From: Geotalea uraniireducens Rf4
GTDB lineage: Bacteria > Desulfobacterota > Desulfuromonadia > Geobacterales > Geobacteraceae
Length of the DNA stretch: 32,000 nt
Reading direction: 5' to 3'
Assembly: GCF_000016745.1 (NCBI RefSeq)
Contig: NC_009483.1
Span: forward strand, 3,180,001-3,212,000
Numbering within the stretch: the stretch's first letter is position 1; each line of letters opens with the position of its first letter. Position numbers and translations under genes: made by a program. Shown in pieces: positions 2,999 through 26,146 of this stretch. Below the pieces are notes generated by a model. That model saw nothing but the letters and a program-made list of their open reading frames with translations, was not told the DNA's origin and ran no database searches.

Positions 2999-3091
2999 AC
3001 AATCCTTTGTAGCTGGAAAAGACCAGGACATGAGAATTCCGGGACAGATTTTTTTCGCGGCTGATCTTCCGTCAACTGCTGCACAAATTCA

Positions 3092-3128
3092 AAAGCCGCC
3101 TTCTGCATCATGCTGATAAGGCGGCTTT
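3092..3128. terminator. Strong hairpin (11-bp stem, AAAGCCGCCTT/AAGGCGGCTTT), possibly a bidirectional terminator
   Basis: Stem at 3092-3102 and 3118-3128 with a 15-nt loop. The A/T runs that form the stem ends supply a T-run on either strand. No annotated gene ends here. Confidence 0.45.
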
Positions 3129-3400
3129 AATTACTTCTTTTTCCCCCGGCGTTCGCACTCCATCATCTCCCTCCGATAACACCGCAATATTACGCAAGTT
3201 TAATACACCTTTTAAACCTTAAAGTCAACGAGAAAGCCCTTCCCCGCGGCTACAAGCCCAGATTCCCACATTCTCTCCTCTTGGTTCCATAGTTGGTCAC
3301 CTTTTTGGTTACTTTTTCGATGCCGTGGACTATGGACGATTATTTGGATGGTAAAAGGCCCCCATAAATGGAACCAATTTGGCTACCTTCAAATGCTCCT

Positions 3401-3439
3401 TAACAGAAAAAAGAAAAGCCTCCTTTATGGGGAGGCTTT
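3401..3439 (-). terminator. Rho-independent terminator with no gene assigned upstream
   Basis: Stem AAAGCCTCC (3415-3423) pairs with GGAGGCTTT (3431-3439) around a 7-nt loop. On the minus strand it is followed by TTTTCTTTTTTCTG. Confidence 0.55.
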
Positions 3440-3603
3440 GGGTGGCATCATGGAGTTTGTTCTTCTTGGACTGCCTGGTTTCGCGCCGCTTTAGATTGCC
3501 TTACGGTCAGCTTTTGCTGCCGTGGCCGATGGTCATTGACCACCGCGAGAAGTCACCTCCCCGATTCGCCCCCTGATTCTTCAGCGTGGCACTTTTCGCC
3601 GGA

Positions 3604-3641
3604 CAAAGCAAAAAGAAAAGGCCCTGATTTCTCAGGGCCTT
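3604..3641 (-). terminator. Rho-independent terminator downstream of the tRNA
   Basis: GGCCCTGA/TCAGGGCC stem at about 3620-3640. On the minus strand it is followed by TTTTCTTTTTGCTTTG. It lies about 35 nt past the tRNA 3' end. Confidence 0.65.
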
Positions 3642-3674
3642 TCGTACTTCGCCGGACAGTGCCGGATTTAAAAT

Positions 3675-3751
3675 TGGTGGCGGTGCAGGGACTTGAACCC
3701 CGGACATCACGGATATGAGCCGTGTGCTCTAACCAGCTGAGCTACGCCGCC
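3675..3751 (-). tRNA. tRNA-Met (anticodon CAU, elongator type; tRNA-Ile2/lysidine not excluded)
   Basis: The 77-nt reverse complement folds by hand into a cloverleaf: GGCGGCG TA GCTC AGCTGGTTA GAGC A CACGG CTCATAT CCGTG ATGTC CGGGG TTCAAGT CCCTG CACCGCC A CCA. CCA is encoded. The G1-C72 pair and the anticodon stem argue against an initiator tRNA. There is one C6-A67 mismatch in the acceptor stem. Confidence 0.9.
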
Positions 3752-6994: not shown

Positions 6995-7423
6995 GTGGAC
7001 GAACACCTAGAGAAAGAAAACAAGGCAATAAAAGGGACGGTTTTGATCATGGATGATGATGAAGATGTCTGCCTGCTGGTTGATTATGCGCTGAGGTATG
7101 CGGGCTTCAACGTGGAGAGTGCGCCAGATGGTCCTGCGGCAATCGACCTCTACCGAAATAGACTGGAAATGGGGCAACCATACATTGCCGTCATCCTTGA
7201 TCTGAATATCCCCGGTAAAATCGGGGGCAAAGAAGTCATCGGCAGCCTCCACGAACTGAACCCGGAGATAATAGCTTTTGTTTCAAGCGGTTATCCCGAT
7301 GACCCATGCATGGTCAACTTCAAGGACTATGGCTTTTCCGGCGCCATTCCCAAACCCATCATGTATGAAGATATCCTCGATTCATTTATGCATGTGATTG
7401 AAAAGAGAGGAACAGAATTATGA
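6995..7423 (+). CDS. Single-domain response regulator (receiver only)
   Basis: TVLIMDDDEDV...AVILDLNIPGKIGG...SSGY...KP is paralogous to the REC domain of the neighbouring hybrid kinase. It has a GTG start with a GGGAG RBS, and its stop overlaps the next start (ATGA). Confidence 0.8.
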   Translation: MDEHLEKENKAIKGTVLIMDDDEDVCLLVDYALRYAGFNVESAPDGPAAIDLYRNRLEMGQPYIAVILDLNIPGKIGGKEVIGSLHELNPEIIAFVSSGYPDDPCMVNFKDYGFSGAIPKPIMYEDILDSFMHVIEKRGTEL

Positions 7424-8250
7424 ACAAGTGGGGTTGTCGGATCGGGCTGATATCAGCAGGTTTTTTTGCCCTGTCGCTTTCTTTCGAGATGCACGCATCC
7501 TGGGCCGTCGAAAGAGAAGAACTGGGGCAGGTACTGAAAATCATGCCTCCCAACGGCCCTGCTGAGCAATACGGCAATGTAGTCATGCGCCGCAGCAGTA
7601 AAAAATCGGGTATGCCACCGGTCGTATTCCCCCACTGGAGCCACCGTGGCCGCTATACGTGCCGCGTCTGTCACAGTGAGCTGGAGTTTGCCATGCGCTC
7701 GGGTGGAAGCGGGATTACCAGGGGGAAATATCTGGCAGGAAAATTCTGCGGCGCCTGCCACAACGGAACAACGGCGTTCAGCGTCAGAGATGAAGAACCG
7801 AGGCAGTGCGACCGTTGCCATATGAAAGATACGGCCGCCCTGAACAAGCGGTTCCGAAGTTTTGCCGCCGGCCTACCAGCCACATCATTCGGCAACAGAA
7901 TCGACTGGGGAGCAGCGCTGGCCGAAGGTTTGGTTGCTCCGCAGAAAACGTTATCGGGAGGGACGTTGTTGATCAAAACACCTGAAGCTTTACAGAAGCC
8001 GCTCGATCTCGGGACAAGCGCGCCCCGCAGCTCCGTTGCATTTTCCCACGGGGAGCACCTGTCTGAAATGGACTGCAGCATCTGCCACCCTGATATCTTC
8101 AATATCAAGAAAAAGGGAACCAGGCTTTTCTCAATGGAAATCAATATCTATGGACAGTTTTGCGGCGTCTGTCACATGCGGGTAGCTTTCCCCATGAACG
8201 ATTGCCGCAGATGCCATATGGGCATGGGCAAAAACAGTTCCGGATATTAA
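7420..8250 (+). CDS. Periplasmic hexahaem cytochrome c made of two c7-type trihaem domains
   Basis: Signal-peptide-like N-terminus. Six CXXCH motifs (CRVCH, CGACH, CDRCH, CSICH, CGVCH, CRRCH) are arranged as two repeats of F.H..H...C..CH...F...GK.CG.CH...AF...C..CH, which I recognise as the c(7)-type trihaem domain pattern. Confidence 0.8.
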   Translation: MNKWGCRIGLISAGFFALSLSFEMHASWAVEREELGQVLKIMPPNGPAEQYGNVVMRRSSKKSGMPPVVFPHWSHRGRYTCRVCHSELEFAMRSGGSGITRGKYLAGKFCGACHNGTTAFSVRDEEPRQCDRCHMKDTAALNKRFRSFAAGLPATSFGNRIDWGAALAEGLVAPQKTLSGGTLLIKTPEALQKPLDLGTSAPRSSVAFSHGEHLSEMDCSICHPDIFNIKKKGTRLFSMEINIYGQFCGVCHMRVAFPMNDCRRCHMGMGKNSSGY

Positions 8251-9636: not shown

Positions 9637-9672
9637 GGACGATCACGTTTTAACCAATTGTCGACCTCCTTT

Positions 9673-9891
9673 CAGCGTTGTCCGGTTTGGTTTGTGCATC
9701 AAGGTTGTTAAGCCCCATTAGGGGCGTTTGAATGTAGCCGGGGGATTCATCCCCCGGATGAGATGCTATATTTCCCCACGTCACGTACGTGACGTGATGA
9801 TATTTCGCCTGGATGACCGGGGAATGAATTCCCCGGCTACCAGTATTCTGTCCCTACGGGACGTAAGCAAAAACCAAACCGGACAACGCTG
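9673..9891. mobile_element. 219-bp foldback MITE-like element with 21-bp perfect terminal inverted repeats and a 9-bp target-site duplication
   Basis: The left TIR is CAGCGTTGTCCGGTTTGGTTT (9673-9693). Its perfect reverse complement lies at 9871-9891. The direct repeat ACCTCCTTT flanks both ends (9664-9672 and 9892-9900). Each arm carries homologous small hairpins (GCCCCATTAGGGGC / GTCCCTACGGGAC and CCGGGGGATTCATCCCCCGG / CCGGGGAATGAATTCCCCGG). A 20-bp perfect palindrome, CACGTCACGTACGTGACGTG, sits at the centre (9777-9796). There is no coding capacity. Confidence 0.75.
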
Positions 9892-9935
9892 ACCTCCTTT
9901 AGAAGTTTCTGCCCCGTTCAAATCCGCATCTCCAT

Positions 9936-9963
9936 AAAAAACCCCGCCTCTTGCGAGGCGGGG
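9936..9963 (-). terminator. Rho-independent terminator of the giant cytochrome operon
   Basis: On the minus strand: CCCCGCCTC-GCAA-GAGGCGGGG followed by TTTTTT. It lies about 35 nt after the stop at 9998. Confidence 0.8.
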
Positions 9964-9997
9964 CATGATGAAACATCACAGGGCATTGCTGAACACG

Positions 9998-12900
9998 TTA
10001 TCTTGCGGTGTACATCCCACCGGAAGATCTCGTGAGATACCCTTTGAGCTGGCTGATGCTGGTCGGATTTCCATCAGGAGCAGCAGTCCGGGCCGTTGAG
10101 TAGTTCGTGAAGTTGAGGATCTGGTTCACGTCAGCATTGGCAGCCGGTCTGTAGACCGAGCCATTCTGCAGATACTGGACCGAGTCGAAGATCAACGCCC
10201 GCGTGAAGGCACGGTTGTGAACATGGGCGCCCTTCTCAGCCTTGAGGAGCTTGTAGTTCATTGCTGCGCCCATGTTCTGCGCGCCAGTGCCGGCAGCAGG
10301 ACCAACGCCGCCGCCAAGGGTCCAGTTCTTGAGCGTACCACCGATCGCGTTCTGGAAGTAGGGGTAGTTGTCGGTGTAGATCATGTTGTTCTGTCTCAGG
10401 GTCCAGTCGAAGAAGTCCATGGCCCTGTCGAAGATCTTCTTCTCGCCTTCGATGAGCTCTTCGATCGGTTCGCTGGTATGGCAGCCATAGCAACCGCCGA
10501 GTGTGGTGGTGTTGGTGCCGTTCGTGGATTTCGCAGTTTCAGCAGCCCCGAAGGTATGGGTGTTTGCAGGACCCATGTGACAAGAGACACACTGCCCCTT
10601 GTTACCGGAATCAACAATCCTGCCGGGATTTTTGTCGCTCTTGGCAGTGGAGAAGTTGCCCATGCCAAGCTTGCCATGCGACCAGTTTGCATTCCTGCCG
10701 ACCTGGACAGTGCCGTCGGCTTTAACGGCGCCGTACGTTTGATACCGCAGCTTGCCGGTGTTGGAGGTGTACCACTGGAAGCCGCCCTTGCCGTAGAACA
10801 CCGCTGCTGCGCCGAGGTAGTGGGGGTTCTTGAAGCTGGCGTTGGCGAAGTCGGCTACGCCGTTGGCAAGGGACGTTCCGTTTTCGCGGCTGGCGTGGCA
10901 GGTGATACAGATGTTGGACTCACCGACATCTTCGTACTGTACGTAGTTGACGCTGGCAGTTGGAGCGGCGCCGTAATCACCACCGTACACCGCATTGTAA
11001 CCGCCGGCGATGGTCCGGACGCTGGTCTTCCAGGCGGTACTGCTGTGGCAGGCGTCGCAGCCCAGCACCTGTTTCGTGGTATCGCCTGCACCGAAGGAAG
11101 CGCTGACACCGGCGGCGAAGTTGTTGGTTACGCCCTTCACGAAGCCGGCGGTGGTGTGACAGACAACACAGCCTCCGGACCTTGTCTTGAAGTCGTAATC
11201 GGTCCAGGCAAGCCCGTTGATGTCACCATGGGCTGATTCGGCATAGTTCTCCAGGATGCTTGCCGTAGACATTGAAGAGTACAATGCTTTATCGGCCCTG
11301 ACTGCGCTGTAATTAGGCGAATCAGTACCATGACCGTAGCCATGGCAGTAGTTGCACTGCGTGCCGGGTGTTACGAACTGGGCCTGGGTAAACGTCTGTC
11401 CCGGGACCAGAGCACCGGTGGTGTTGTAGTGCGGCGCCTGCTCGACGCCTGGAACAGCTTCACCTGAGAGTGTACTTCCGGTGCCGAAGTGACAGCCCAT
11501 GCAGCCGGGGTTGTTCAACTGGGCCAAGGCCTGGCTGGCCGTTTGCGAGGTGATGACCGTCGGGTTGTAGTACTGCGACGTCGGGGAATTGGCCATGGCC
11601 AGAACAGTGTTGGCCGAGGAGTTGTTTGTGACGTTGTCGTCAAGCCAGTCGATGGAGTCGAAGATGAGTCGCCTGGAGTATGCCGGGTTGTGAACGTAGG
11701 CGGCCTTGTCGGCGGTTTTGAAGAGGTACCAGTTGAACCAGGCGCCTATGTTTTTCTCGGCTATGGCGTTGTCTTTGGTGCCGCGGCTCATGTCAAAGGC
11801 TTTACGCTCAGGAAGAACGTTAACGCCATCCAGCGTGAACCCTTTTTTGACGAGCAGGTTGCCAAGGGCCGCAACTGCTGCATTGAATTCATCCTTCTTC
11901 GCCTGGATGTCCTGGTAGGTGAAGTCAGCCGGGTGGCATTTCACACAGGCAGTGCTGACGATGCCGTTGATCTGACCGGTGATCGCATCTGCCGTTACTG
12001 CTTCCAGAGAGTGCGTTTTAGTTGATGTCATGTGGCAGCCGGCGCAGTTACCCGAGGTAACGCCGGTATTGTTGTAGCCGGTCCCTGTTCCGTTGTTGCC
12101 GATGCGGATGTGACGCATGCGGTCCTGGTATCCCTGTGCGGAGGTGAACTCGTATCCGCCCTTTCCGTCGACGATTGCGGCCGGCTGTGCTTCATGCGGA
12201 TACATGCTCGTTCCCACGGAGTACTGCTTGAAGGCCCCCTGTGCAAACAAGGCCTTGATGCCGGTACCGGCAGCGCGCTGGCTGTGGCAGGGGATACAGA
12301 TGTTGGAGTTCTTGTTGTCGGTGAATTCAAGATTTACGACCATTTTCGCCGGTGCTATCGCCACGGTGCTGTAACCATAGAAAGACTTGACCTTGGCGTA
12401 ACCTGCCGGCAGAGGCCGGACCGCCCCTTTGAAGCTTGTGTGGCAGCCGCTGCAGACAAGGGGTGCGCTGGCTTTATCCAGGGTCTTGGCGACGGGATCA
12501 AGATAGACCTTGTCGATGTTGCTGAAGCCGGAATCCCAGTACTGCGCGAAACCGCGGGCAGAGTGACAGCGGATGCAGTTGGTCTTCTGGGGTGAAACCT
12601 GATAGTTGACGCCGTCACTCCCCTGGCCGTTCCAGTTGTGGCTGGCATTGCTGACGAACGCTGCTGCATCAAGTTTGCCGTGGCCGCCTTCGGCCCAGCC
12701 GGCGTTGATGCTGTTGTTGTGGTAATGGCAGTCAGCGCAGGTGGCGCCACCGGAGGTAATGTAGGAGGCCGTGGGGAAATACCCGCCGGCATCGGCAGTG
12801 CCGGTCTGGAAGTGCGGCGCTTTGCCGCTCTGGTCGGCATTGTAGATACCGTAAGGCGAGTCGGGAGTATGGCAACTCTGGCAACCGGTTGCGGCGACCG

Positions 12901-14803
12901 GGCTAAGAGATGAATATGCCCCGAAGGTAGCCTCGGTCGAATGCGGGTTGTGACAGGCGACGCAGGCGTCCTTGTCCATCCCCTCAAGTTTTGCATTGGC
13001 GCCGGTGAAGTGTGTGGATTTCTCGAAAGCCTTTACAGACCAGCCGTGGTTACCACCTGCATGACAGGTGTAGCACGTGGATTGTGCAGTCGCTGCAAGG
13101 CCGTGTTCATCGTGGCAGGCAATACATGCATTCCCGCCGGGACGTGAGTATACTACCTGGGTGACAGGGTCGGTATAAGTTATGTAGGTAGTGGATTTCC
13201 CGTTGGAGACATATGCTGCGGGGCCGGGTACAGGACCCATGCCGGGCCTGAAGTGGCACCGGTAGGCGCAGGTTACCGTGCTGCCGTTTTCTGTTGTCGT
13301 GTAACTGTCGTTGGCATTGAGATACCCACTTGAATATGTGCCGTGTGACACGACTTTTCCGCCGGTAACGGTCGTGTTAAGTTGGTTCGCGAATTCCGGA
13401 CCATACTCTAAGTTATTCTGCCAGTGCTTGCTGCCGAAGAATTCATTCGGCACTTTGCCGTGCTTGCTCCCGGTGTGGCAGGTTAAGCAGGTCGTCTCGT
13501 ATGTCGCCGAGAGTTTGTGCGGGTCATGGCAGGCAATGCAGCCATCTCCGCCGGGACGTACCTTTACCTTAGTAACAGGGTCAACGTTATTCGTGTCTCT
13601 CTTGCTGGGGTCAGGGCCCATTCCCGGCTTGAAATGGCACCTGTAGTAGCAGGTCATTTGCTTGCCGTTTTCCAGTGTCGTGTAGGTTTCGTTGGCGTTG
13701 GCCTCGCCTGCCACCGCGCCACCGGTAAATTCCGGGCCGTACTCAAGATGGTTGTTCCAGTGGGCACTGGCTTGAAATTTGGTCGTCTCAGCGGAAGAAG
13801 GGGTGTGACAGCTCAAACAGGTATTGTTGTTAGACGTCTTTGTGGTTACGGTGCCGGGGTGGGCGGTTGTTTGAGCTCCGTTATGGCATTCCGTACAGGT
13901 AAGAGCCGATTGGTGCGTTGAGGCTATGTAATCGCTAATCATCTGGGCACCTGCTGTGGTGCTGGAGTGACAACCAGCGCATTGGTTGGAAGCAGCCGCC
14001 GCTGAGTCAAAAGCATTGATCTTGACGGTATCACCGGCAGTGTTGCCCGTGGTGTCTGTCGCCGTCAGCTTAAGAACATACATCCCCGCCACATCGGGAG
14101 TAAAAGTGGCGTTTGCCGAAGCGGGGTTGACGATGCCAGCCGTCGAACCTACAGGCCGGGACTCGACAGTCCATGCAAAGGATGCGATGCTCCCGGCCGG
14201 TGATGTGGCGTTGCCGCTGAGAGATGTCTGCATCCCGGTAATGACACTCTGATCCACCCCGGCTTCGGCGGTCACCCCCTTGAATATCGCAGTGATGGCG
14301 TGGTCAGCCGTGACGTTGGTGAGTGTGTAGGTCATGCCGGCGGGATCGGTGATTGGGACGTCCGCTCCATTATCCTTCAGCTGAAGGATCGTGTTGCCGA
14401 TGTTGGGCTTGATGGTGAACGTCTTGGACTTGCCGTACCCAACCGCCGTGCCGGTGGGGCTGGTGATCGAACCGCCATTTGATTGAACAGCCGTCACCTG
14501 GAAGGTCTGCGCGGCGAAGTAGGCAGTGAGCGTCTGCATCGTCGACCTGTAGGAAACGTTTACCGTGGCTACCTTTCCCTGGTCGACATTGTTCAGGAGA
14601 ACCTTCGAAACTGCATTTCCAGTAATGGGCGTAATGGTAAAGGTCTTGACCGTGTTGGTGGTAAAGTTGGCGTATCCGTTTGGGGATACGCTGCCCATGG
14701 ACGGCTGGGCGGATGTCGCCTTGACCGTCCACGTTGACGCCGCATTGACGATTGCCGGCAAGGCAAACGACAATGTCAGCAGATATATGAGTCTTCTTAA
14801 CAT
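9998..14803 (-). CDS. Giant secreted multihaem cytochrome c (1601 aa; 22 CXXCH plus 2 CX3CH) with N-terminal Ig-like/PKD-like domains
   Basis: Signal peptide (…AIVNA/AS). Residues about 22-270 are haem-free beta-sandwich repeats, followed by a PKD-like segment (FAWTVESRP...YVLKLTATD). I counted 22 CXXCH by hand, plus CYYRCH and CAYRCH. Residues about 346-449 and 458-587 are an internal tandem duplication. Two C-terminal pentahaem modules each end in a (A/G)xVHN..(Y/F)..(R/A)LIFDS helix. A GAGGAG RBS precedes the start. Confidence 0.9.
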   Translation of the reverse strand: MLRRLIYLLTLSFALPAIVNAASTWTVKATSAQPSMGSVSPNGYANFTTNTVKTFTITPITGNAVSKVLLNNVDQGKVATVNVSYRSTMQTLTAYFAAQTFQVTAVQSNGGSITSPTGTAVGYGKSKTFTIKPNIGNTILQLKDNGADVPITDPAGMTYTLTNVTADHAITAIFKGVTAEAGVDQSVITGMQTSLSGNATSPAGSIASFAWTVESRPVGSTAGIVNPASANATFTPDVAGMYVLKLTATDTTGNTAGDTVKINAFDSAAAASNQCAGCHSSTTAGAQMISDYIASTHQSALTCTECHNGAQTTAHPGTVTTKTSNNNTCLSCHTPSSAETTKFQASAHWNNHLEYGPEFTGGAVAGEANANETYTTLENGKQMTCYYRCHFKPGMGPDPSKRDTNNVDPVTKVKVRPGGDGCIACHDPHKLSATYETTCLTCHTGSKHGKVPNEFFGSKHWQNNLEYGPEFANQLNTTVTGGKVVSHGTYSSGYLNANDSYTTTENGSTVTCAYRCHFRPGMGPVPGPAAYVSNGKSTTYITYTDPVTQVVYSRPGGNACIACHDEHGLAATAQSTCYTCHAGGNHGWSVKAFEKSTHFTGANAKLEGMDKDACVACHNPHSTEATFGAYSSLSPVAATGCQSCHTPDSPYGIYNADQSGKAPHFQTGTADAGGYFPTASYITSGGATCADCHYHNNSINAGWAEGGHGKLDAAAFVSNASHNWNGQGSDGVNYQVSPQKTNCIRCHSARGFAQYWDSGFSNIDKVYLDPVAKTLDKASAPLVCSGCHTSFKGAVRPLPAGYAKVKSFYGYSTVAIAPAKMVVNLEFTDNKNSNICIPCHSQRAAGTGIKALFAQGAFKQYSVGTSMYPHEAQPAAIVDGKGGYEFTSAQGYQDRMRHIRIGNNGTGTGYNNTGVTSGNCAGCHMTSTKTHSLEAVTADAITGQINGIVSTACVKCHPADFTYQDIQAKKDEFNAAVAALGNLLVKKGFTLDGVNVLPERKAFDMSRGTKDNAIAEKNIGAWFNWYLFKTADKAAYVHNPAYSRRLIFDSIDWLDDNVTNNSSANTVLAMANSPTSQYYNPTVITSQTASQALAQLNNPGCMGCHFGTGSTLSGEAVPGVEQAPHYNTTGALVPGQTFTQAQFVTPGTQCNYCHGYGHGTDSPNYSAVRADKALYSSMSTASILENYAESAHGDINGLAWTDYDFKTRSGGCVVCHTTAGFVKGVTNNFAAGVSASFGAGDTTKQVLGCDACHSSTAWKTSVRTIAGGYNAVYGGDYGAAPTASVNYVQYEDVGESNICITCHASRENGTSLANGVADFANASFKNPHYLGAAAVFYGKGGFQWYTSNTGKLRYQTYGAVKADGTVQVGRNANWSHGKLGMGNFSTAKSDKNPGRIVDSGNKGQCVSCHMGPANTHTFGAAETAKSTNGTNTTTLGGCYGCHTSEPIEELIEGEKKIFDRAMDFFDWTLRQNNMIYTDNYPYFQNAIGGTLKNWTLGGGVGPAAGTGAQNMGAAMNYKLLKAEKGAHVHNRAFTRALIFDSVQYLQNGSVYRPAANADVNQILNFTNYSTARTAAPDGNPTSISQLKGYLTRSSGGMYTAR

Positions 14804-14902
14804 AGGGATCTCCTCGCATAATAATGTTAAAGGTTTCCATGATGATGAAATACAATCCTAATAACAATCAGGAGAGACGTTTTTAACAACCTAACCGGTC
14901 CG

Positions 14903-15715
14903 TTACTTGTTGTGGCAGGTAACGCACAGTTGCGAGCCGTTCTGCGGAGCGTACACGAAGTAGTTCACCGAGGATTCAGTGCGGCCGCCGGGTGCAGATG
15001 CGTCGACGACCGTGCTTGCCACGTTGTCCTTGTTGTGCACATCATGGCAGCTGGCGCAGGTCATGGTCGTGCCCAGGTGCAATACGTCCTTGATCTGGAC
15101 ATTATTGGGATTACCTGCAAACGGAGTGCTTTCCTCATTGATCCCTTGATTCAGTTTGCCACCGGCATTTTTATCCGCGGTTTTGGCGTCTATATAATTA
15201 AACCCGATCGGATGGTCGCTGATCAGGCTGTCGCCGGCGCCTACTGCGCCATGTTCGGAATCTTTTATGGAGAAGATGTCGCCGGTAAGTTGTGATGTGC
15301 CGGAACCGGTTTCGTTTGCGTTGGTGTAATGGGTATCTATGGCGACGACGCCGTCATGACAGCTCATGCAGAGCCGGGAAGGCCCGATGAGTGGGTCGCC
15401 GATGGACGCTTGCAGGGTGTCGCTCGCATAAGGGGCATAGTTCTTCTTGGTCAGTTCGTGTGACCAGAGCGGTAGGTAGTCGGCATTGTTTGCAGCCGGA
15501 TCATAGGCATGGTGAGGCGTATGGCAGAATGCGCAGACACGCTCCTGCACATCACCTTGAACGGTAAGACCTTCGGTATTCTGTTTTGCGTATGCGTTGA
15601 TGTCATGTCTCGATCCCGTGATACCTCCGCCAGGGGCGGTCCAGGCCAAAGCAGTTGCCGTACCGGCAGCTATAATGGCGGCAAGAGTAAATGCAGCTAA
15701 AAAGTTCTTCTTCAT
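14903..15715 (-). CDS. Secreted tetrahaem cytochrome c of the doubled-CXXCH type (possible OmcS/OmcE-like class)
   Basis: Signal peptide and 4 CXXCH motifs (CAFCH, CMSCH, CASCH, CVTCH). The layout RHD..........CAFCHTPHHA...PLWSH...LCMSCHDGVVA...DHPIGF...CASCHDVHN...LCVTCH is colinear with the N-terminal half of the 584-aa cytochrome at 20599-22353. A perfect AAGGAG RBS precedes the start. Confidence 0.85.
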   Translation of the reverse strand: MKKNFLAAFTLAAIIAAGTATALAWTAPGGGITGSRHDINAYAKQNTEGLTVQGDVQERVCAFCHTPHHAYDPAANNADYLPLWSHELTKKNYAPYASDTLQASIGDPLIGPSRLCMSCHDGVVAIDTHYTNANETGSGTSQLTGDIFSIKDSEHGAVGAGDSLISDHPIGFNYIDAKTADKNAGGKLNQGINEESTPFAGNPNNVQIKDVLHLGTTMTCASCHDVHNKDNVASTVVDASAPGGRTESSVNYFVYAPQNGSQLCVTCHNK

Positions 15716-15939
15716 GATGTGATCTCCTTTTCAAAAGCATTTGAAATGACTTCACTCTGTTTTGTTTCCCGGCTTTCGATTGATATTGTTCTCTTTCAAC
15801 CTTACGAACTACCCATTCCTGCACTGTTTTCATTCCTGAAGGGAAAAACGTTCGGTCACCTCCTTTCACCCCCTGGTTGCACGGAAAAGTTCGTTTGAGT
15901 AATGGGCCGCACGACGCTTTAATTATTTATAATTAATAA

Positions 15940-15955
15940 AGCATTACTGATGCCA
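15940..15955 (-). promoter_or_regulatory. Candidate sigma-54 (-24/-12) promoter, TGGCAT-N5-ATGCT
   Basis: The minus strand reads TGGCATcagtaATGCT, with the invariant GG and GC at the canonical 12-nt offset. It lies about 225 nt upstream of the tetrahaem cytochrome ATG. A sigma-54 activator gene is encoded 1 kb upstream. Confidence 0.55.
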
Positions 15956-16203
15956 CCATTTACACACGGTTGTATGTTTGGTTCCTGTTATTTGTGTGCC
16001 CTTGCGCAAGTTGTCTGTATGACCGCATCTATAAGGGCATGGGAGCCAAGGGCAAATGTCGGAGCCGCTTTCGCAGTAGGATGTACCGACCCGATAACAG
16101 CCGATTGCTCCGGCACAAACGTTACTTAAAAGTAACATCTCGGTGTTATAACGTATCCGCTTGCAGGCGTCCGAGTTTGCACCGAGGGCGATGCACCATG
16201 CTT

Positions 16204-16443
16204 TCAGCGCTTGACGCCTTTCGACCTTTGCCTTATTCCATGGGCGTATACGGCCAGAGGAAGAAGCTTTTTATGTTTGACGAGCACCTCCTCCAGCGAA
16301 CCTGCATCATTGATGATGATGTCGTTTGCACCCAGTGCGGTTTCGGCGCTATGTCGGCCGTTCGGGCAGCTGTATACCATTATGGGGTAATCATTCCCGT
16401 GGATATTGATGAATGATTTGTGCACCAGTATTTTATTTGTCAT
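16204..16443 (-). CDS. Small hypothetical protein (79 aa)
   Basis: A GGAGG RBS lies 5 nt before the ATG at 16443 (the track ORF extends to 16491). I recognise no motifs. It overlaps an implausible Cys/Arg-rich plus-strand ORF. Confidence 0.4.
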   Translation of the reverse strand: MTNKILVHKSFINIHGNDYPIMVYSCPNGRHSAETALGANDIIINDAGSLEEVLVKHKKLLPLAVYAHGIRQRSKGVKR

Positions 16444-16521
16444 GACGCCTCCACCCTGCCACATCCTGTCGACAGGCATTAATTTCATCATTCAAGGGTG
16501 TTGTTCAGACCTTATGAAATC

Positions 16522-16697
16522 GTAACTATTCAGCTTACTGCCAAAACCTATAACCCCACCTGTCCTCCCCTTAAGCTAAGGGGAGGGACGCTATGTTGTC
16601 GCTGTATCGGAAGTCCCAGACGAAGCCGATTTTCACGTCCCCCCTCTTAAGTTAAGAGGGGGACAGGGGGAGTTATCCATCGCTGCTGAATAGTTAC
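16522..16697. mobile_element. 176-bp MITE-like foldback element carrying two GC-rich hairpin units
   Basis: 13-bp terminal inverted repeats: GTAACTATTCAGC (16522-16534) and GCTGAATAGTTAC (16685-16697). The direct repeat ATGAAAT occurs at 16514-16520 and 16698-16704, with 1 nt of slack on the left. Each arm has a hairpin (16562-16589, GTCCTCCCCTTAAGCTAAGGGGAGGGAC; 16637-16664, GTCCCCCCTCTTAAGTTAAGAGGGGGAC) followed by an ACAGG(T/G)GG(G/A)GTTAT tail, in inverted orientation. Confidence 0.65.
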
Positions 16698-16849
16698 ATG
16701 AAATTAAAGAGAGAGGAGCAGTATTAATGCCAAATAATTAGTTATTATTTATTTGAAGAGGGTGGCGAAGAATTCACCGAACTGATAAACAGGAGAAAGG
16801 AGGGAGTTACCCGGGAAGGCATTACCAAGAAAGTAGCAGAAACACGATT

Positions 16850-18208
16850 TCAAACCGCCCGGATACGTTTCAACCGTTCCCACAGAACCTTTCGGGAAAG
16901 GCCCAGGATACTCGCTGAACGGGTTTTATGGCCGCCGACACTATGGAGGACTTTTTCAATGTACTTATTCTCGAAATCTGCAACCGCTTCCTTCAAGGGT
17001 TTGCCGACGGCAAACGATTCGAAAAGCCTGGCGGCCAAGTCGGGATTCTGCATCGAAACCGACAGGTGGCGCGGTTTGATGATTTCTCCGGGATAGAGAA
17101 TGGATATGTGTTCGACGATGTTTTGCAATTCCCTGACATTTCCCGGAAAACCGTAGTTACAAAGTGTTTCCAGGGTCTCGGGAGTAAAATGAGGCTTCGG
17201 GCGGGGATTTTTTTCCTGAAACCGCTTCTGGAAATAGGCGATCAAAAGTGGAATATCTTCCCGTCTTTCCCTTAATGGCGGAATTGTTATCGGCACAACG
17301 TTTATGCGGAAAAAAAGGTCTTCGCGAAATGCCCGTGTACCGGCCAGCACCTTGAGATCCCTGTTGGTTGCGGCTACAAGGCGGAAATCCACGTCATACT
17401 CCATGCTGCCGCCGACCCTGTGGATGGCCTTCTCCCCCAGCGCCCGCAGGAATTTCCCCTGGAGGAAAAGCGGCAATTCTGCGATTTCATCGAGAAACAA
17501 GGTCCCTTTATCCGCCGCTTCCAGGTATCCGCATCGGCTTTTATCCGCGCCGGTGTATGCCCCGCGTTCGACGCCGAACAGCTCGCTTTCGAACAGGGTC
17601 TCCGGTATGGCTGCGCAATTCACCTTGATGCATGGATGTTTGCTCCTGCGGCTTTTTGCGTGAATAATTTCCGCAAGTAAATCCTTGCCGGTGCCGCTCT
17701 CTCCCAGCAGCAGCACCGTGGCATCTGTAGCAGCCACCATTGCGGCCGTCTGCAAAATATCTTTCATAACCGGACTGCGGGTTATGCATTCACAACTCAA
17801 CCCAGCGGCTTCGTCCCGGGAATCGATCTCTTTTTCCACTTGCCTGAATTCCATCACACTCTGCAGTTTCTGGAACAGAGTTTCCATGGTGAACGGCTTG
17901 GTTAAAAAATCGAAGGCCCCCATTTTCATGGCCTTGACCGCCTTCTCTATCGTTCCGTTGCCGGTCATGACCAGGGCCCGGCAATAGGGGGTTTTGCCGA
18001 GAACCTCGCCCATGATATCCAGACCATCGGCATCCGGCAGACCGAGATCTTCCAGCAGGAGATCAAAGCTGTCTTCTGTCAGCGCCTGCAGGGCATCGGC
18101 ACCGCTTTGTGCCAGTCTTACCTGATAGCCGGAGCTTTCCAGCGCCCGCTTGAGGGGCTCGCCCAAAAGCGGCTCGTCATCCACTACAAGTATTTTAATC
18201 CTGCTCAT
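16850..18208 (-). CDS. Sigma-54-dependent response regulator (NtrC family: REC, AAA+, HTH)
   Basis: REC domain (KILVVDDEP...KP), Walker A (GESGTGK), a GAYTGA variant of the GAFTGA sigma-54 contact loop, ESELFG, and a C-terminal Fis-type HTH (RSASILGLSRKVLWERLKR). The start is placed at the ATG at 18208, with a GGGGAGGGG RBS. Confidence 0.9.
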   Translation of the reverse strand: MSRIKILVVDDEPLLGEPLKRALESSGYQVRLAQSGADALQALTEDSFDLLLEDLGLPDADGLDIMGEVLGKTPYCRALVMTGNGTIEKAVKAMKMGAFDFLTKPFTMETLFQKLQSVMEFRQVEKEIDSRDEAAGLSCECITRSPVMKDILQTAAMVAATDATVLLLGESGTGKDLLAEIIHAKSRRSKHPCIKVNCAAIPETLFESELFGVERGAYTGADKSRCGYLEAADKGTLFLDEIAELPLFLQGKFLRALGEKAIHRVGGSMEYDVDFRLVAATNRDLKVLAGTRAFREDLFFRINVVPITIPPLRERREDIPLLIAYFQKRFQEKNPRPKPHFTPETLETLCNYGFPGNVRELQNIVEHISILYPGEIIKPRHLSVSMQNPDLAARLFESFAVGKPLKEAVADFENKYIEKVLHSVGGHKTRSASILGLSRKVLWERLKRIRAV

Positions 18209-19673
18209 TATGCCCCTCCCCATTGATGGGTATCATAACGGTAAAAACGGTTTCACCACGGCGGCTGTCGAGCAGTATGGCGCCATGATGCATATCCACG
18301 ATGGTTTTGCATATGGCCAACCCAATCCCGCTCCCCTTGCCGGACGGCTTGGTGGTGTAGAAGATCTCGAAGATTTTTTCCCGTGCCTCATCGGGCACTC
18401 CTTCTCCTTCGTCCTTAACGGAAAAACAGTAATGGTCGCCGCACAGGAATGTGGAAAACTCGATGGTTCCCTGTGGCGGCGAAGCATCCGCGGCATTTAT
18501 CAATATGTCCAGGACAACCTGATGGAGCTTCCCCTTATCCATCAGGATAGCCACAGGGGGAACGCACATATCCGCTGCTTTCAGCGAAAGAGAATGTTTC
18601 TTCAATGCCATTCCGCCGAAAGAGGCTGCCTCATGAAAGAACAGGTCGCTTCGCACCGGTTGCAAGGCCAGATTGCCGGCATGGCTGAAGTCCGACAACT
18701 GCTTGACGATATTCTGTATCCTGAAAAATCCCTGTTTCAGGGTGTCGATGTCGGCCTGCATTTTTTCCGAAGCGCTTAGTCCGAGATTATAAAGACAGCT
18801 CGAAATGGCTGCCAGCGGGTTGTTCACTTCATGGGCAACCCCGGCAACGAGCTTGCCGGTTAATGCAAGTTTCTCGTTTTGCACCATCGAAAGAACAGCA
18901 CGCTGACGCTCGGCTTCGCTCTGTTTCAAGCGGTCGATCATGGCGCTGAAACTCCTTTGCAACAGGCCGATTTCATCGCGTCTTTGCCCCGGTAGCGAAG
19001 CATCCAGCGTTTCGTGCGTAACATCGGCCATAGCTATGGAAAGTTGCCTCAAGGGACGTGTCATGGTCAAACCGATTATGTAGAAAATCGTTGTACCCGT
19101 AAGAAAGATCAGGGCGGAAAAGCTCCATATCGTTCGCTTCATTGAATCGAGCATTGATTCAAGCGGTGCAAGAGAAAATCCGACACGGAGCGCCCCCCAA
19201 CTTTTCCCGTGGATGTTCAGCGGCATAGCCATGTGAAGAACGGAGTTGCCATCCCCCTCGCCATGAACCTTCATGCTGCGATATTTGTTGTCTGAAAGTG
19301 CTGCAAGGGTAAAAGGATCGTTATACACCTTGCCGTATTCCATCGGACGATTGTGGGCAATAACCTTGCCGTGCTGGTCTGTTATAAAGGCATAAACCGT
19401 CTTGTATTCCCGATTCTCTACGATTTCCTCGAGAAGATTGTCGAGGAAATCGCGTGCTTCATGTGATCCCAGTTCTTCGTTGATGATGGCGTTGATTATG
19501 GGAACCTTCATGGATGTCAAAAGCAATTTCCCGTCACTTTCCAGCTTCCCGGACAGGTTTCTCTCTTCGACATGCAAGAACCATCGTCCCACCGTAAAAG
19601 ACGAGATCGCCACGATTACGGCAGCCGTCAATACGAATTTTGTCTTCAGACTGAATACGAGCCTTGTTCTCAT
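18195..19673 (-). CDS. Membrane sensor histidine kinase (periplasmic sensor domain, HAMP, HisKA, HATPase_c)
   Basis: Two TM segments flank a periplasmic region of about 170 aa. H-box AHEVNNPL. The ATP-binding region includes GSGIGLAI. The ATG at 19673 overlaps the upstream stop (TGATG); the track uses a TTG at 19694. Confidence 0.85.
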   Translation of the reverse strand: MRTRLVFSLKTKFVLTAAVIVAISSFTVGRWFLHVEERNLSGKLESDGKLLLTSMKVPIINAIINEELGSHEARDFLDNLLEEIVENREYKTVYAFITDQHGKVIAHNRPMEYGKVYNDPFTLAALSDNKYRSMKVHGEGDGNSVLHMAMPLNIHGKSWGALRVGFSLAPLESMLDSMKRTIWSFSALIFLTGTTIFYIIGLTMTRPLRQLSIAMADVTHETLDASLPGQRRDEIGLLQRSFSAMIDRLKQSEAERQRAVLSMVQNEKLALTGKLVAGVAHEVNNPLAAISSCLYNLGLSASEKMQADIDTLKQGFFRIQNIVKQLSDFSHAGNLALQPVRSDLFFHEAASFGGMALKKHSLSLKAADMCVPPVAILMDKGKLHQVVLDILINAADASPPQGTIEFSTFLCGDHYCFSVKDEGEGVPDEAREKIFEIFYTTKPSGKGSGIGLAICKTIVDMHHGAILLDSRRGETVFTVMIPINGEGHNEQD

Positions 19674-20551
19674 CAATGACAGCCTTTGCCGCAACTGGAA
19701 GGAATGGTTTTGAACATTCGCGACACCTGCCGGTAGTCTGATAATTTGGCCGTGGTGAAGCCGTATTTAAACGTGTCGTCCCAGTTGCTCATGAGTTTTT
19801 CATGGGAAGGATTGGTCCTGTCCAGCATGAGAAGGGCGTCCGTAACAGCCTTGACAAGCTGCTTCGGCGCGTCGCCCCTCACCACGATCGGGGCCGTCGG
19901 TATGGGATTGGAATATGCCAACACGCGCAGCCCTTCTTTTCGGTACTTTTCTGCCGTTATGTCATTTACCGCGCCGGCGTCGTACTCTCCTCTGAGCACG
20001 GCCCTGGCCACTTCATCATGATTTCTGAGGTTGGTGAACGAGCCGAGTTCCTGCATATAGACCCTCTTGCTCAACAGCAGATAGCGCGGGAAAAGGTTGC
20101 CGGAAGTGGAGTGAAGGTTGCCGAACGCCACTTTTTTGCCTTTGAGGTCCTGCAAGGAATTGAGCGGAGAGATGCGGGGGACAACGATCGCGCTCCGGTA
20201 CGAAGGACGGCCGTCTTCCCTCAGCGGCATGAGAATGGGGACCGCGCCGAAGCGGAGCCGCGCCTCCACAAAGGCGATATCGCCGAGGAAGCCGAGCTGG
20301 GTCGTGCCGTATTTGAGAAATCTCAGGGTTTCAAGGTAGTCGCGGCTGATCTTGAGTTCAAAGCGGTAAGGAGTGTTTTGCGTCAGGTAGTCCATGAGCG
20401 GCTGGTAACGCTTGTACATGCTGATGGGATTGTAACGGAGGTTGACGCCGAAACGGACCACCGGTTTCTCCGTTGTCTTGGAACGCGCGGTAAAGAGCGG
20501 CGCAACGAGTAGCGCCAGGAATACCACTGAAAACAACTGCTTCCTTTTCAT
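19673..20551 (-). CDS. PhnD-like periplasmic substrate-binding protein ending in CGKGCH
   Basis: Signal peptide (MKRKQLFSVVFLALLVAPL), then RFGV...Y.PL..YL......FEL........L..G..QLGFLG...HSTSG, typical of the phosphonate-binding-like (PhnD) fold family commonly paired with kinases. The extreme C-terminus is SSCGKGCH. The start is placed at the ATG at 20551, with a GGGAG RBS. Confidence 0.75.
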   Translation of the reverse strand: MKRKQLFSVVFLALLVAPLFTARSKTTEKPVVRFGVNLRYNPISMYKRYQPLMDYLTQNTPYRFELKISRDYLETLRFLKYGTTQLGFLGDIAFVEARLRFGAVPILMPLREDGRPSYRSAIVVPRISPLNSLQDLKGKKVAFGNLHSTSGNLFPRYLLLSKRVYMQELGSFTNLRNHDEVARAVLRGEYDAGAVNDITAEKYRKEGLRVLAYSNPIPTAPIVVRGDAPKQLVKAVTDALLMLDRTNPSHEKLMSNWDDTFKYGFTTAKLSDYRQVSRMFKTIPSSCGKGCH

Positions 20552-20598
20552 TTCGGAACTCCCTGGTGAAGGTATTCCACACCGGCATGGGCCGGGAA

Positions 20599-22353
20599 CT
20601 AATAACTTCTCGGGTTGGTGGAATGACAACTGACTGAACAGCTTCCTGCGCCATAGACGGCAGTGGGTCCTGCATAGCGTGTATCAAAGTTGATCAGGTG
20701 AAGATTAGCCGCAACACCGTGGGGGTCGTGGCAGGCGGAGCAAGGTGCTTCTTTTCCCGTATGATCAAGCACATGCGCTTTATGCAGGGCAACCGATGGA
20801 GCGTTTGGCGGCCTCGTGGGGTTCAGCAGGTAGTCCGGGTCGTGGCAGCGGAAGCAGAGCGGATAGGTTTTGTCGGCAGACGGATAGGTCTCGCTGTTTT
20901 TTTCTTTCAGCATGTGAGGCTCGTCTGCGCCCATGGGGCTGTGACAATCGCAGCAGTAAATCATGGTCATCCTGGTCTGATACTGCAACAGGAGGCTTTT
21001 CCCAGTCCCTTGGCGACTTCCTGTTACCGGGTGGTAGGACATATTGCTTGCCGCAAAACGAAGGCTTTCGTCCAGCACATCAGATTGCCGCAAAGGACGT
21101 TCTATGAATTTTTTGAAGACGGCGTTCGTATATGCATGGCACTTGAAACAAATCTGGAACTCGGCTGTAGCCGGTGCGACTTCGCTTTTGCCGGATTCGT
21201 CGACGCCTCTCACCCCTCTCAGAGCACCGTTAATTGCCGGCGGAGTTGCAGCAGGAGCAACCAGGGGGGTGCCGGATCCGAATGGAACGCCCTGATAGCC
21301 CGCCTGATGAGGGTTATGGCAGTCCACACATTCCACATGTTTGACCTTGGCCGGCAGCGGTTCGTTCTGCACGTGCCCCCCCTCCCCTGCCGACGGCACA
21401 CTGTGGGTGTAAGCTTTATTGAACAGCGATCTGATATCCCCGTCGGTGTTTGCGCCGTTATGGCAGGTGCCGCTGCCATCGCGGTGAAAGCAGTTTTCGC
21501 CGGGAACGGCGCTCTTCAGCAAATGGACTGCTCCGGGAGCGCTGTGCGGAAAATGGCAGGTGATGCATCCCGATTTCGAGACGTTGGCGCCGTTGGTGGA
21601 ATCTCTTACCCCACCTGTCCGGTGGGTGCTGTCAGGGAGGTTCCACCCCGACTTCCTGTGACAGGCGGTACAGAGCGGAGTGCCGGGATTTTCCCAGGGG
21701 ATGTTGTTTATGACGGTGAAGTTATCGTTCAGGTTATTGTGCGGGTCATGGCAGGAAGTGCATTCGAGGTAGATGCCCTCCGACAGCCTGATCCCCTTGG
21801 CTGCCAACAACTGCGGGTTTTCCAGCTCGGCATCTGCCTCATAGGTGTAAGGGAACGAGATGGGATGATCGTCCGACAGGTCCCACCCCAGGTTGGTTAT
21901 TTTAGCGGGATCGGTGTCGACAGCATCCTTCACCATCTTCGGCATACCGTTGTCCAGATTGTAGGTACCGGTTAATGCGCCGAGAGCCACGGTTCCGTCA
22001 TGGCAGCTCAGGCATAGCCGCGATGCCCCTTTTGGTTGACCGGGCTTTGCCTTGAGGGTTGTCGACCCATACGGAATATAGGTGGTAAGAGTCGAAATCT
22101 GACGGCTCCACAACGGGCCGTCGCCATTGGCATGGTGGGGTGCATGGCAGAAGATGCAGATCTTTTCTTCCTTTGTCGACTGGTACAACGGGGTGTGCCC
22201 TTTATCAGGCGCACCTTTACCGCTCGTGGAGAGATTGTGCGGGGTATCGGCAACATTGGAGCCCCGGTTGGATGCATGGGCCTGCCCCATGCTCAGAAGG
22301 GCAAAGGCGCATAGTATCCAAAATGCGTGCAGTGGCCGTATTTGCCTGTTCAT
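20599..22353 (-). CDS. Secreted multihaem cytochrome c (584 aa; 10 CXXCH plus the variants CSVSCH and C-X8-CH)
   Basis: Signal peptide (…GQAHA). The N-terminal half is a paralogue of the 270-aa tetrahaem protein (PHNL....CIFCHAPHHA..PLWS..LCLSCHDG..DHPISF..CTSCHDPHN..LCTACH). The start overlaps the upstream stop (ATGA). Confidence 0.9.
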   Translation of the reverse strand: MNRQIRPLHAFWILCAFALLSMGQAHASNRGSNVADTPHNLSTSGKGAPDKGHTPLYQSTKEEKICIFCHAPHHANGDGPLWSRQISTLTTYIPYGSTTLKAKPGQPKGASRLCLSCHDGTVALGALTGTYNLDNGMPKMVKDAVDTDPAKITNLGWDLSDDHPISFPYTYEADAELENPQLLAAKGIRLSEGIYLECTSCHDPHNNLNDNFTVINNIPWENPGTPLCTACHRKSGWNLPDSTHRTGGVRDSTNGANVSKSGCITCHFPHSAPGAVHLLKSAVPGENCFHRDGSGTCHNGANTDGDIRSLFNKAYTHSVPSAGEGGHVQNEPLPAKVKHVECVDCHNPHQAGYQGVPFGSGTPLVAPAATPPAINGALRGVRGVDESGKSEVAPATAEFQICFKCHAYTNAVFKKFIERPLRQSDVLDESLRFAASNMSYHPVTGSRQGTGKSLLLQYQTRMTMIYCCDCHSPMGADEPHMLKEKNSETYPSADKTYPLCFRCHDPDYLLNPTRPPNAPSVALHKAHVLDHTGKEAPCSACHDPHGVAANLHLINFDTRYAGPTAVYGAGSCSVSCHSTNPRSY

Positions 22354-23426
22354 TTCTTAGCGCCTCTCACCATTGCGTCACCCAGCTTCAGGTACCTGAA
22401 CACCTGGACCCGGCGGTTATAGGTATCTGCAACATAGATATAATCTTTCCCATCTATGTAAATGCCTGACGGCATCCAGAATTGCCCTTCCTGCCCACCG
22501 TTGCTCCCGAAATCGAGGAGAACCCGGCCTGTTCCGTCAAAGATCTGCACCGCGTCGAATAGCGCATCGCAGACATAAATATGACCTTCGCTGTCAACGG
22601 CAACCCCCTTTGGTTTGGCGAAACTTCCGGAGGAATCGCCGGCCCTGCCGAACACATCCAGCAGCTGTCCATCAGGAGAAAATCTCTGAATTCTGAAATT
22701 CAGCGCATCCGTTACCAGCAAGCTCCCCTGGGCATCCACAAACAGGTCGGTAGGATAATTGAACTGACCGGGCAGATCCCCCCTGACGCCTATCCTCATT
22801 CGCTCCATGCCGTCGAGGCCGAAGGCGATTACCTGGTGAGCCGCGGTATCGGTCACATAGATCAGCTTATTGCGCCGGTTGTAGGCTATCCCCGTCGGTC
22901 TCCCCAGCTTGAAGGGTACAAACGGGGAAAGCTCCTTTCGAATAAGGCTGTATCGGTAGATAGCGCCTGCTGACGAATCCGTTATGTAGACATTCTCCTG
23001 TTCATCCTCCGTAATGGCGATCGGAGTCCTGAAAACGGCTTTGTCTTCTTTCCCGATGAGGAAATATTCCTTGTTTCTCATGTCCATGACGTGAACGACA
23101 GAAGCCCCCACGTCAACGACGAAGAGCCGCTCTTTCTCGTCGCAGAAAACGCCGTACGGCTTGATGATGCGGGTTTTATCCTCTCCGAAAACCAGATCCG
23201 CCAGCCGTTGCCAGAACCCTTTGCTGATCCCTGCATCGCGATAATCGTTAATGTCCTTTACCCATTCTATCCTCGGCTCCAGTGGCAAAGGCGGCCATTG
23301 AAGTTCACGACTCGCAGACCTTTGTCCGGTGGCGGATGAGGATGCACAGGCGGTTACATACAGGCAGGCAAGTACAGCGCAGATAACCTTCATGCTTTTT
23401 ACAAGGACGGATGTTCCCAGTTGCAA
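22350..23426 (-). CDS. NHL-repeat beta-propeller lipoprotein
   Basis: Lipobox (LYVTAC). There are about six repeats of the (F..P.GIA/VAVD..G.IYV.D..N.RIQ.F) NHL pattern. The start is ambiguous: TTG at 23426 directly abuts the AAGGAGG, and the ATG at 23393 lacks a good RBS. Confidence 0.85.
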   Translation of the reverse strand: MQLGTSVLVKSMKVICAVLACLYVTACASSSATGQRSASRELQWPPLPLEPRIEWVKDINDYRDAGISKGFWQRLADLVFGEDKTRIIKPYGVFCDEKERLFVVDVGASVVHVMDMRNKEYFLIGKEDKAVFRTPIAITEDEQENVYITDSSAGAIYRYSLIRKELSPFVPFKLGRPTGIAYNRRNKLIYVTDTAAHQVIAFGLDGMERMRIGVRGDLPGQFNYPTDLFVDAQGSLLVTDALNFRIQRFSPDGQLLDVFGRAGDSSGSFAKPKGVAVDSEGHIYVCDALFDAVQIFDGTGRVLLDFGSNGGQEGQFWMPSGIYIDGKDYIYVADTYNRRVQVFRYLKLGDAMVRGAKK

Positions 23427-26144: not shown

Positions 26145-26146
26145 AA

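Follow-up and report, generated by a model that had tools for sequence, protein, structure and literature searches.

A conserved OmcE-type cytochrome cluster of Geotalea uraniireducens appears to be extended by an OmcE paralogue and a rare giant multihaem cytochrome

We analysed a 32,000-nt stretch of DNA from Geotalea (formerly Geobacter) uraniireducens Rf4, referred to throughout as the window, with a focus on two adjacent genes. One encodes a 270-aa tetrahaem cytochrome (the small cytochrome) and the other a 1601-aa secreted cytochrome with 24 haem motifs (the giant cytochrome). Judged from sequence, an OmcE-type gene cluster is extended here by an OmcE paralogue of a separate, histidine-rich clade and by a rare giant cytochrome. 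The reading we favour, to which we assign a probability of roughly 60%, is that the two genes, probably together with a small upstream open reading frame (ORF), encode the part that faces outwards in an extracellular electron-transfer cluster conserved in Geobacterales. It builds on homologies, ligand conservation, domain architecture and conserved gene linkage, each of which was observed directly. Both genes lie where a preliminary description of this DNA had placed them (Table 1), and the strong terminator it reported after the giant gene was recovered by a terminator scan and RNA folding (−29.9 kcal/mol, z = −3.4; 0 of 200 shuffles fold equally well). No attenuator or terminator was found between the small and giant genes (fold z = +0.87). 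Because a neighbouring 661-aa protein is named Gura_2756, we place the pair at about Gura_2749 (small) and Gura_2748 (giant). We found no paper that mentions Gura_2748, Gura_2749, Gura_2754, Gura_2756 or the corresponding accessions.

The small cytochrome is confirmed, at the level of sequence, as a member of the OmcE superfamily. A recount gave the same figures as the preliminary description, namely four CXXCH motifs and nine histidines outside them, from a total of 13. A PDB sequence search matched residues 17–231 to the OmcE filament of Geobacter sulfurreducens (PDB: 7TFS) at an E value of 4.5e-15, and also returned a 16-chain entry (PDB: 9YUQ; E 1.1e-8) that fits the antiparallel OmcE bundle of Desulfuromonas soudanensis from a 2025 preprint. 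With G. sulfurreducens OmcE as the phmmer query, the small cytochrome was retrieved at 1.3e-20. It is about 27–28% identical to both solved OmcE filament subunits. It had previously been likened to OmcE or OmcS, with OmcZ as a further candidate for comparison; the OmcE part of that proposal stands, while neither OmcS nor OmcZ chains appeared among the PDB matches at E values up to 10, where the two OmcE-type chains were the only cytochrome filaments. The suggested paralogy to the N-terminal part of a 584-aa cytochrome encoded upstream also holds, residues 53–270 aligning to residues 58–234 of that protein with 32% identity (E 2e-24). The AlphaFold2 model of the small cytochrome (predicted local distance difference test score, pLDDT, 74.5) consists largely of coil, with helix making up about 19%; OmcE is reported to be about 17% helix and 80% coil.

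Haem ligands were compared in an alignment of four groups, comprising 119 close database relatives, 120 OmcE relatives, 17 giant-linked copies and 13 N-terminal domains of 584-aa-type proteins. The CXXCH histidines H65, H120, H224 and H268 and the non-motif histidines H37, H68, H168 and H227 are essentially invariant across all four groups. These eight residues are the ligands common to both solved OmcE filaments, and they are kept in 118–119 of the 119 relatives, in all 17 giant-linked copies and in 120 of 120 OmcE-clade proteins. The group to which the small cytochrome belongs carries an additional histidine triad (H69, H86 and H129), conserved in about 100% of its members and found in none of the 120 OmcE-clade proteins; on the basis of these alignments, the triad is a clade marker that separates the group from OmcE proper. 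A neighbour-joining tree resolves three groups cleanly and sets the clade of the small cytochrome apart from the OmcE clade (137 of 137 versus 120 of 120). Given this separate clade, the three extra invariant histidines and a different locus, the small cytochrome is not an orthologue of OmcE (GSU0618). The superfamily as a whole is large, with 3048 representatives at 50% identity and E ≤ 1e-3, and OmcE as the query gave 5808 proteins at E ≤ 1e-10. The triad clade makes up about 26 of the top 75 superfamily representatives, and none of its members ranks lower. Elsewhere among the proteins retrieved, the OmcE-like query matches three to four separate stretches in each of two long chains, P0334 (1400 aa, 16 haem motifs) and P0404 (1450 aa). 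Each looks like several OmcE-like tetrahaem domains strung in tandem along one chain, as though separate subunits had been covalently joined.

The giant cytochrome combines a haem-free head with a long multihaem region. It contains 22 CXXCH and two CX3CH motifs (at residues 385 and 512), 53 histidines and 48 cysteines, and residues 1–21 form a Sec signal. The head consists of three tandem immunoglobulin (Ig)-like β-sandwich domains, predicted by AlphaFold2 (pLDDT 89.6) at about residues 25–98, 100–176 and 178–265, the third of which is a PKD domain (residues 181–263; Pfam PF22352, E 1e-11). A Foldseek search with the head returned tandem Ig-like arrays, including those of the adhesins SraP and RTX and of titin, and the PKD domain 2yrl (TM 0.69). 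The head is followed by a c7-like tandem repeat, with a unit of about 120–135 aa carrying three haem motifs (one CX3CHFxP and two CXXCH); residues 303–461 and 422–599 are 45–50% identical in a segment self-BLAST. Most full-length relatives have one to three copies of the CX3CHFxP motif that marks this unit; the most distant one, P0141, has none. Two pentahaem modules, A and B, occupy much of the remainder; they are 25–37% identical by self-BLAST, have five haem motifs per copy and align in one profile (A3). The haem count, the Ig/PKD-like head, the tandem duplication (given as nt 13043–13768, which our repeat covers) and the duplicated pentahaem modules had all been put forward in the preliminary description, and each of them was recovered.

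The pentahaem modules match the Pfam family PF02335 (Cytochrom_C552) at E 9.5e-9 and 35.1 bits, above the cutoff of 24.1, and the module profile matches NrfA chains in the PDB at E 8.6e-5 to 1e-2. The matched region lies chiefly in the last two haems and helical tail of each module. No CXXCK motif is present anywhere in the giant cytochrome, and each module has five invariant non-motif (distal) histidines for its five haems; over the whole chain, 22 conserved non-motif histidines accompany the 24 haems. The absence of CXXCK and the full set of distal ligands per module point to an electron-transfer wire and not an enzyme. An OmcE-like domain was also sought in the giant cytochrome; the family hidden Markov model (HMM) found none with the HMMER speed filters off, and BLAST gave only a 26-aa similarity. 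At its C terminus the protein has a basic tail (window 9998–10030) that is conserved among orthologues (...YTAR or ...RR, and ...RP in distant ones) and was not recognized as a known sorting signal.

Close relatives of the giant cytochrome are few. About 13 full-length homologues were found among 5.8 billion clustered proteins, mainly from Geotalea and Geomonas genomes and from metagenomes. A scan of 185,579 species genomes gave 34 loci, mostly from Geobacteraceae and other Desulfuromonadales, with two Nitrospirota metagenome-assembled genomes (MAGs) and one Desulfobulbales MAG among the weakest partial matches. With so few relatives, and no paper found that names it, the giant cytochrome does not appear to be a common, already characterized orthologue, which the preliminary description had raised as an objection to its own reading. 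In two Desulfuromonadales MAGs (L023, 9986–22772, and L024, 9929–21908), large multihaem cytochrome genes stand one after another in an array opposite the six-gene block described below. Three genes of the array in L023, and two in L024, have 20–24 haem motifs, and neither locus has a small OmcE-like gene.

Upstream of the pair lies a six-gene block whose last gene encodes the 584-aa cytochrome. Residues 14–234 of this protein form a complete OmcE-like domain (family HMM E 1.9e-47; E 2.7e-24 against G. sulfurreducens OmcE), and with 11 haem motifs in total it resembles an OmcE-like protein fused to seven more haems. The other five genes encode two NHL propeller lipoproteins, a five-haem lipoprotein cytochrome, a DmsE/MtrA-like cytochrome and a 661-aa putative outer-membrane barrel, the last so classified because it has a signal peptide, no cysteine and a C-terminal ...RFF. 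A minimal OmcE cluster has been described as two multihaem cytochromes, two β-propeller lipoproteins and a large barrel (10.1101/2025.10.22.684050), and the block has this make-up, with the barrel putative. The omcE locus of G. sulfurreducens (L041) has the order purHDE-ppcA-resB-ccsB-MHC-MHC-NHL-omcE-752 aa-glycosyltransferases, where MHC denotes a multihaem cytochrome; the block's cytochromes and a propeller are homologous to their counterparts at L041 (E 3.5e-91 and 2.4e-61). In the window the cluster is flanked by cobalt transporter genes of the energy-coupling factor (ECF) type (CbiM/PDGLE, CbiQ and an ATP-binding cassette ATPase; 29557–31972), and these together with flanking sensor genes indicate that the cluster is not at the purHDE-resB/ccsB locus. 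The signal peptides and lipoboxes predicted for the cluster proteins fit export.

The association between pair and block is recurrent. At least 15 species-level genomes have an OmcE-like tetrahaem gene immediately ahead of a giant-type gene. Of the 34 species loci, at least 10 show the pair behind the six-gene block, usually without regulator genes between them; in most relatives the pair directly follows the gene for the 584-aa cytochrome. Six further triad-clade proteins were checked, three of which follow the block and precede a large multihaem cytochrome. Of the remaining three, one precedes a block that has the giant gene after it, one belongs to a fragmentary cluster copy and one is an orphan. 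The small gene also varies in number, with two tandem copies in L010 and a second copy after the giant gene in L008. From this recurrent linkage we conclude that the pair forms the conserved end of a cluster of eight to nine genes, and that the independent two-gene unit of the preliminary description is not one in evolution.

The same description gave the pair its own sigma-54 promoter. The proposed −24/−12 element, TGGCAT-N5-ATGCT, is present 240 nt upstream of the small gene's ATG, but it lies within an insertion of about 170 nt (15900–16090) that is specific to the window and absent from L005 and L008. The conserved site is a second element further upstream, between a regulator gene and a small ORF, which is matched in the alignment upstream of the small ORF in L005 (TGGCATTAATGCTGCT) and L008 (TGGCACCAATAATGCT). 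A start of the unit at about 16732 is therefore probable, with the small ORF inside it and probably as its first gene. The predicted product of this ORF, 79–95 aa long, lacks a signal peptide and matches nothing in Pfam or NCBIfam. In L005, L008 and L011 the ORF is conserved ahead of the small cytochrome gene, and in L007 it stands after the giant gene. Of 15 loci, 7 have similar sigma-54 elements ahead of the small gene, and some of these have no regulator module. In the window, the correctly spaced −24 GG and −12 GC elements and the adjacent gene for a 457-aa NtrC-type activator are consistent with a predicted sigma-54 operon. The activator belongs to a regulatory module, identified with Pfam and NCBIfam, that also encodes a PhnD-like periplasmic binding protein and an sCache/HAMP histidine kinase. 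Among loci with the pair, this module stands upstream of it only in L005, L008, L010, L013 and the window, and is a lineage-specific insertion. Two GC-rich palindromes resembling repetitive extragenic palindromic (REP) elements lie between the conserved site and the small ORF (16550–16690) and are lacking in L005 and L008. A search of the long leaders for known RNAs or riboswitches gave a single Rfam hit, a spurious microRNA match on a REP-like palindrome.

Table 1. Features of the window (nucleotide positions within the 32,000-nt stretch; residue numbers refer to the protein named)
Feature	Position	Strand	Details
Intrinsic terminator closing the unit	9941–9964	−	10-bp stem, 8 G-C pairs, then T6
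Giant cytochrome, 1601 aa, secreted	9998–14803	−	24 haem motifs; ABQ26922, about Gura_2748; Sec signal peptide ends VNA/AS, no lipobox
Giant: NrfA-like pentahaem module B	10052–11203	−	residues 1201–1584; duplicate of A
Giant: NrfA-like pentahaem module A	11549–12610	−	residues 732–1085; helical tail
Giant: c7-like tandem repeat	13007–13897	−	residues 303–599
Giant: three Ig-like domains, third PKD	14009–14740	−	residues 22–265
Small cytochrome, 270 aa, OmcE superfamily	14903–15715	−	tetrahaem; ABQ26923 / WP_011939599, about Gura_2749; signal peptide ends ALA/WT
Sigma-54-like element in insertion	15940–15955	−	TGGCATCAGTAATGCT
Small ORF	16204–16491	−	79–95 aa; 79-aa version starts at 16443
Conserved sigma-54-like element	16717–16732	−	TGGCATTAATACTGCT
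Regulatory module	16850–20629	−	PhnD-like binding protein, sCache/HAMP kinase, NtrC-type activator
584-aa cytochrome	20599–22353	−	11 haem motifs; about Gura_2754
Rest of six-gene block	22350–28907	−	five genes: 358, 661, 201, 407 and 449 aa
Block: NHL propeller lipoproteins		−	358 aa and 407 aa
Block: putative outer-membrane barrel		−	661 aa; Gura_2756
Block: five-haem lipoprotein cytochrome		−	201 aa
Block: DmsE/MtrA-like cytochrome		−	449 aa; 15 haem motifs

For the cluster as a whole we infer an extracellular location, polymerization, a direction of electron flow and a regulatory link along the following lines. The six-gene block would carry electrons over the outer membrane and may export or anchor surface cytochromes. 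The small cytochrome could then polymerize as OmcE does, or dock haem-to-haem on OmcE-like partners, and the giant cytochrome would act as a wire, secreted as a single chain with about 24 bis-His haems, whose two NrfA-like modules no longer have the catalytic haem site. The probable task of its three Ig-like domains is attachment, whether to a surface, to a partner protein or to a second cell. The adjacent module of binding protein, kinase and sigma-54 activator may switch the unit on in G. uraniireducens, through the −24/−12 promoter.

Several observations weigh against this proposal. The 661-aa putative barrel has no match to a Pfam or NCBIfam family and, in comparison with the 752-aa protein of the omcE locus, an hhalign probability of 0.2% and no BLAST match. 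The promoter signal is modest: the window holds two sigma-54 motif matches where 0.31 would be expected, and two or more turn up in 5 of 100 shuffles. The small cytochrome belongs to a different clade from both proven filament formers, and filament formation is established for only these two members of a superfamily that numbers thousands. One relative of the small cytochrome is an orphan without a surrounding cluster. A Foldseek search of the PDB with the small cytochrome model gave zero matches, not even 7TFS, and structural support is thus absent; for a protein that is about 80% coil we took this result as uninformative and did not count it against homology. The literature yielded no experiment or expression data for the pair. 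Filament formation by the small cytochrome is plausible from its conserved ligands and cluster context, but it is unproven, as its clade differs from that of the two proven filament formers. The filament-forming and mineral-contacting 'cable' roles of the preliminary description are not demonstrated by the sequence.

The extra histidines and the separate clade of the small cytochrome also suit a function unlike that of OmcE. It could be a monomeric relay, at the cell surface or within the barrel, through which electrons leaving the porin-cytochrome conduit reach the giant cytochrome without any filament. The tight linkage of the two genes, with about one small gene per giant gene and a co-transcribed arrangement as we read it, would agree with such an adaptor. 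The eight OmcE ligands speak against it: they are all kept, including the histidine of the N-terminal arm, which is a candidate cross-subunit ligand only, whereas a monomeric tetrahaem protein needs only intrachain ligands. The extra copies of the small gene in L010 and L008 fit a structural subunit. On balance we regard a purely monomeric role as rather unlikely. A reductase role for the giant cytochrome, of the NrfA or octahaem nitrite reductase type and acting on nitrite, hydroxylamine, sulfite or a similar substrate, seems highly improbable to us in spite of the match of its two modules to Cytochrom_C552 and to NrfA structures. That match is concentrated in the last two haems and the tail, and a catalytic NrfA-type reading is ruled out by the missing CXXCK and the five distal histidines per module, which leave no open coordination site apparent.

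A more elaborate variant, in which the cluster encodes a multi-part nanowire, appears doubtful. Here the triad-clade paralogue would be the shaft, and the 584-aa fusion, the Ig-headed giant cytochrome or both would serve as base, stopper or acceptor-contacting tip. The joints would be formed by OmcE-type cross-subunit His-haem ligation, with the triad histidines as ligands of, or contacts for, the haems of a partner. Three distinct OmcE-superfamily or giant components are indeed kept together in one cluster, and the 584-aa fusion has a complete OmcE-like domain that includes the N-terminal histidine. In 9 of 13 orthologues of the 584-aa protein this domain also has a ninth histidine, and the triad itself is invariant in the clade of the small cytochrome and absent from OmcE proper. 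A recent structural study of OmcE proposed 'nine His, four haems' as the signature of a stopper and noted that OmcE operons encode no tip or stopper candidate. On the other hand, the giant cytochrome is without an OmcE-like domain even in the unfiltered HMM search, the surplus histidines could equally bind a metal ion or be structural, and there is no attenuator between the small and giant genes to give the excess of shaft subunit expected of a polymer. Should this variant nevertheless be true, the as yet unknown parts that start, end and tip cytochrome nanowires would be encoded in this cluster.

OmcS, OmcE and OmcZ nanowires hold a central place in current models of how microbes respire minerals and pass electrons between species. 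The export, anchoring, initiation, termination and tips of such nanowires are not understood, and the cluster gives genetically linked candidates. It unites an OmcE-type export block, a giant Ig-headed haem wire and two different OmcE-like proteins, one fused to further haems (584 aa) and the other bearing three surplus invariant histidines (270 aa). The surplus histidines and the second OmcE-like fusion are of interest because the OmcE literature asks what stops and tips the filament.

Other elements were observed in the window around the cluster. Just 3′ of the giant gene's terminator (9672–9892) lies a palindromic element, about 220 nt long, in which three inverted repeats (arms of 26, 24 and 22 nt) are nested concentrically; it could be a miniature inverted-repeat transposable element or a structured RNA. 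Past the unit, on the plus strand (6995–8250), are a receiver-domain gene and a gene for a six-haem c7-type cytochrome, the latter recurring beside the cluster in L005, L010 and L011. Further away, a tRNA gene (3678–3751, minus strand) adjoins a low-GC stretch (0.35–0.40) with an AIPR-domain gene (152–1831) and a TIR-domain gene (2036–3031), and the region 152–3751 looks like an integrated defence island.

Among known systems, OmcE (GSU0618, PDB: 7TFS; DSOUD_2954, PDB: 9YUQ) is the nearest to the small cytochrome. Both are tetrahaem proteins of about 230–270 aa with a Sec signal and a mostly coil structure, both keep four CXXCH motifs and four other ligand histidines, and the genes of both have neighbours for multihaem cytochromes, for NHL propeller lipoproteins and for a large putative barrel. 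The small cytochrome differs from OmcE in having H69, H86 and H129, in its identity of only 27–28% and in its clade. The loci differ as well: the cluster in the window is not at the purHDE...resB/ccsB locus and has no glycosylation genes close by, the gene order is not the same and the barrels are not detectably homologous. The small gene is followed by a giant cytochrome gene, a feature not shared with OmcE, and of the two only OmcE is known to polymerize.

The closest described two-gene analogue is OmcP/OmcO (GSU2913/GSU2912), a tetrahaem and a roughly 27-haem cytochrome, likened here by published description and not by sequence. In Geobacter metallireducens the adjacent genes Gmet_0557 (4 haems) and Gmet_0558 (27 haems) are co-expressed, and the organism needs both to reduce Fe(III) oxide and to pass electrons to G. 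sulfurreducens; a survey places OmcE and OmcP in one family, 'OmcE/P' (PMC11492766). G. sulfurreducens and G. metallireducens were absent from the searches made with the giant cytochrome, which use shared words or patterns and so do not exclude distant homology. If the pair corresponds to OmcP/OmcO, its architecture would offer a structural rationale for the known phenotypes in Fe(III) oxide reduction and interspecies transfer.

For the giant cytochrome, comparison can be made with two further groups. Its modules resemble the last haems and helical tail of the NrfA/octahaem nitrite reductase family (PF02335); unlike NrfA, they have no CXXCK haem, carry a conserved distal histidine on all five haems and are embedded twice in a 24-haem chain. 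The survey cited above also describes 'nanowire-like' cytochromes of Desulfuromonadia as very long single chains with at least 20 haem motifs that are predicted to be extracellular, exemplified by a 27-haem G. metallireducens protein (PMC11492766). By description, the giant cytochrome resembles these high-haem proteins in length and haem number. It differs from the survey's set in lacking the canonical hematite-binding motif, [ST]-hydrophobic-[ST]-P-[ST], which is absent from all three cytochromes of 270, 584 and 1601 aa. What is described here is its Ig-like head, its two NrfA-like modules and its fixed pairing with an OmcE-like gene.

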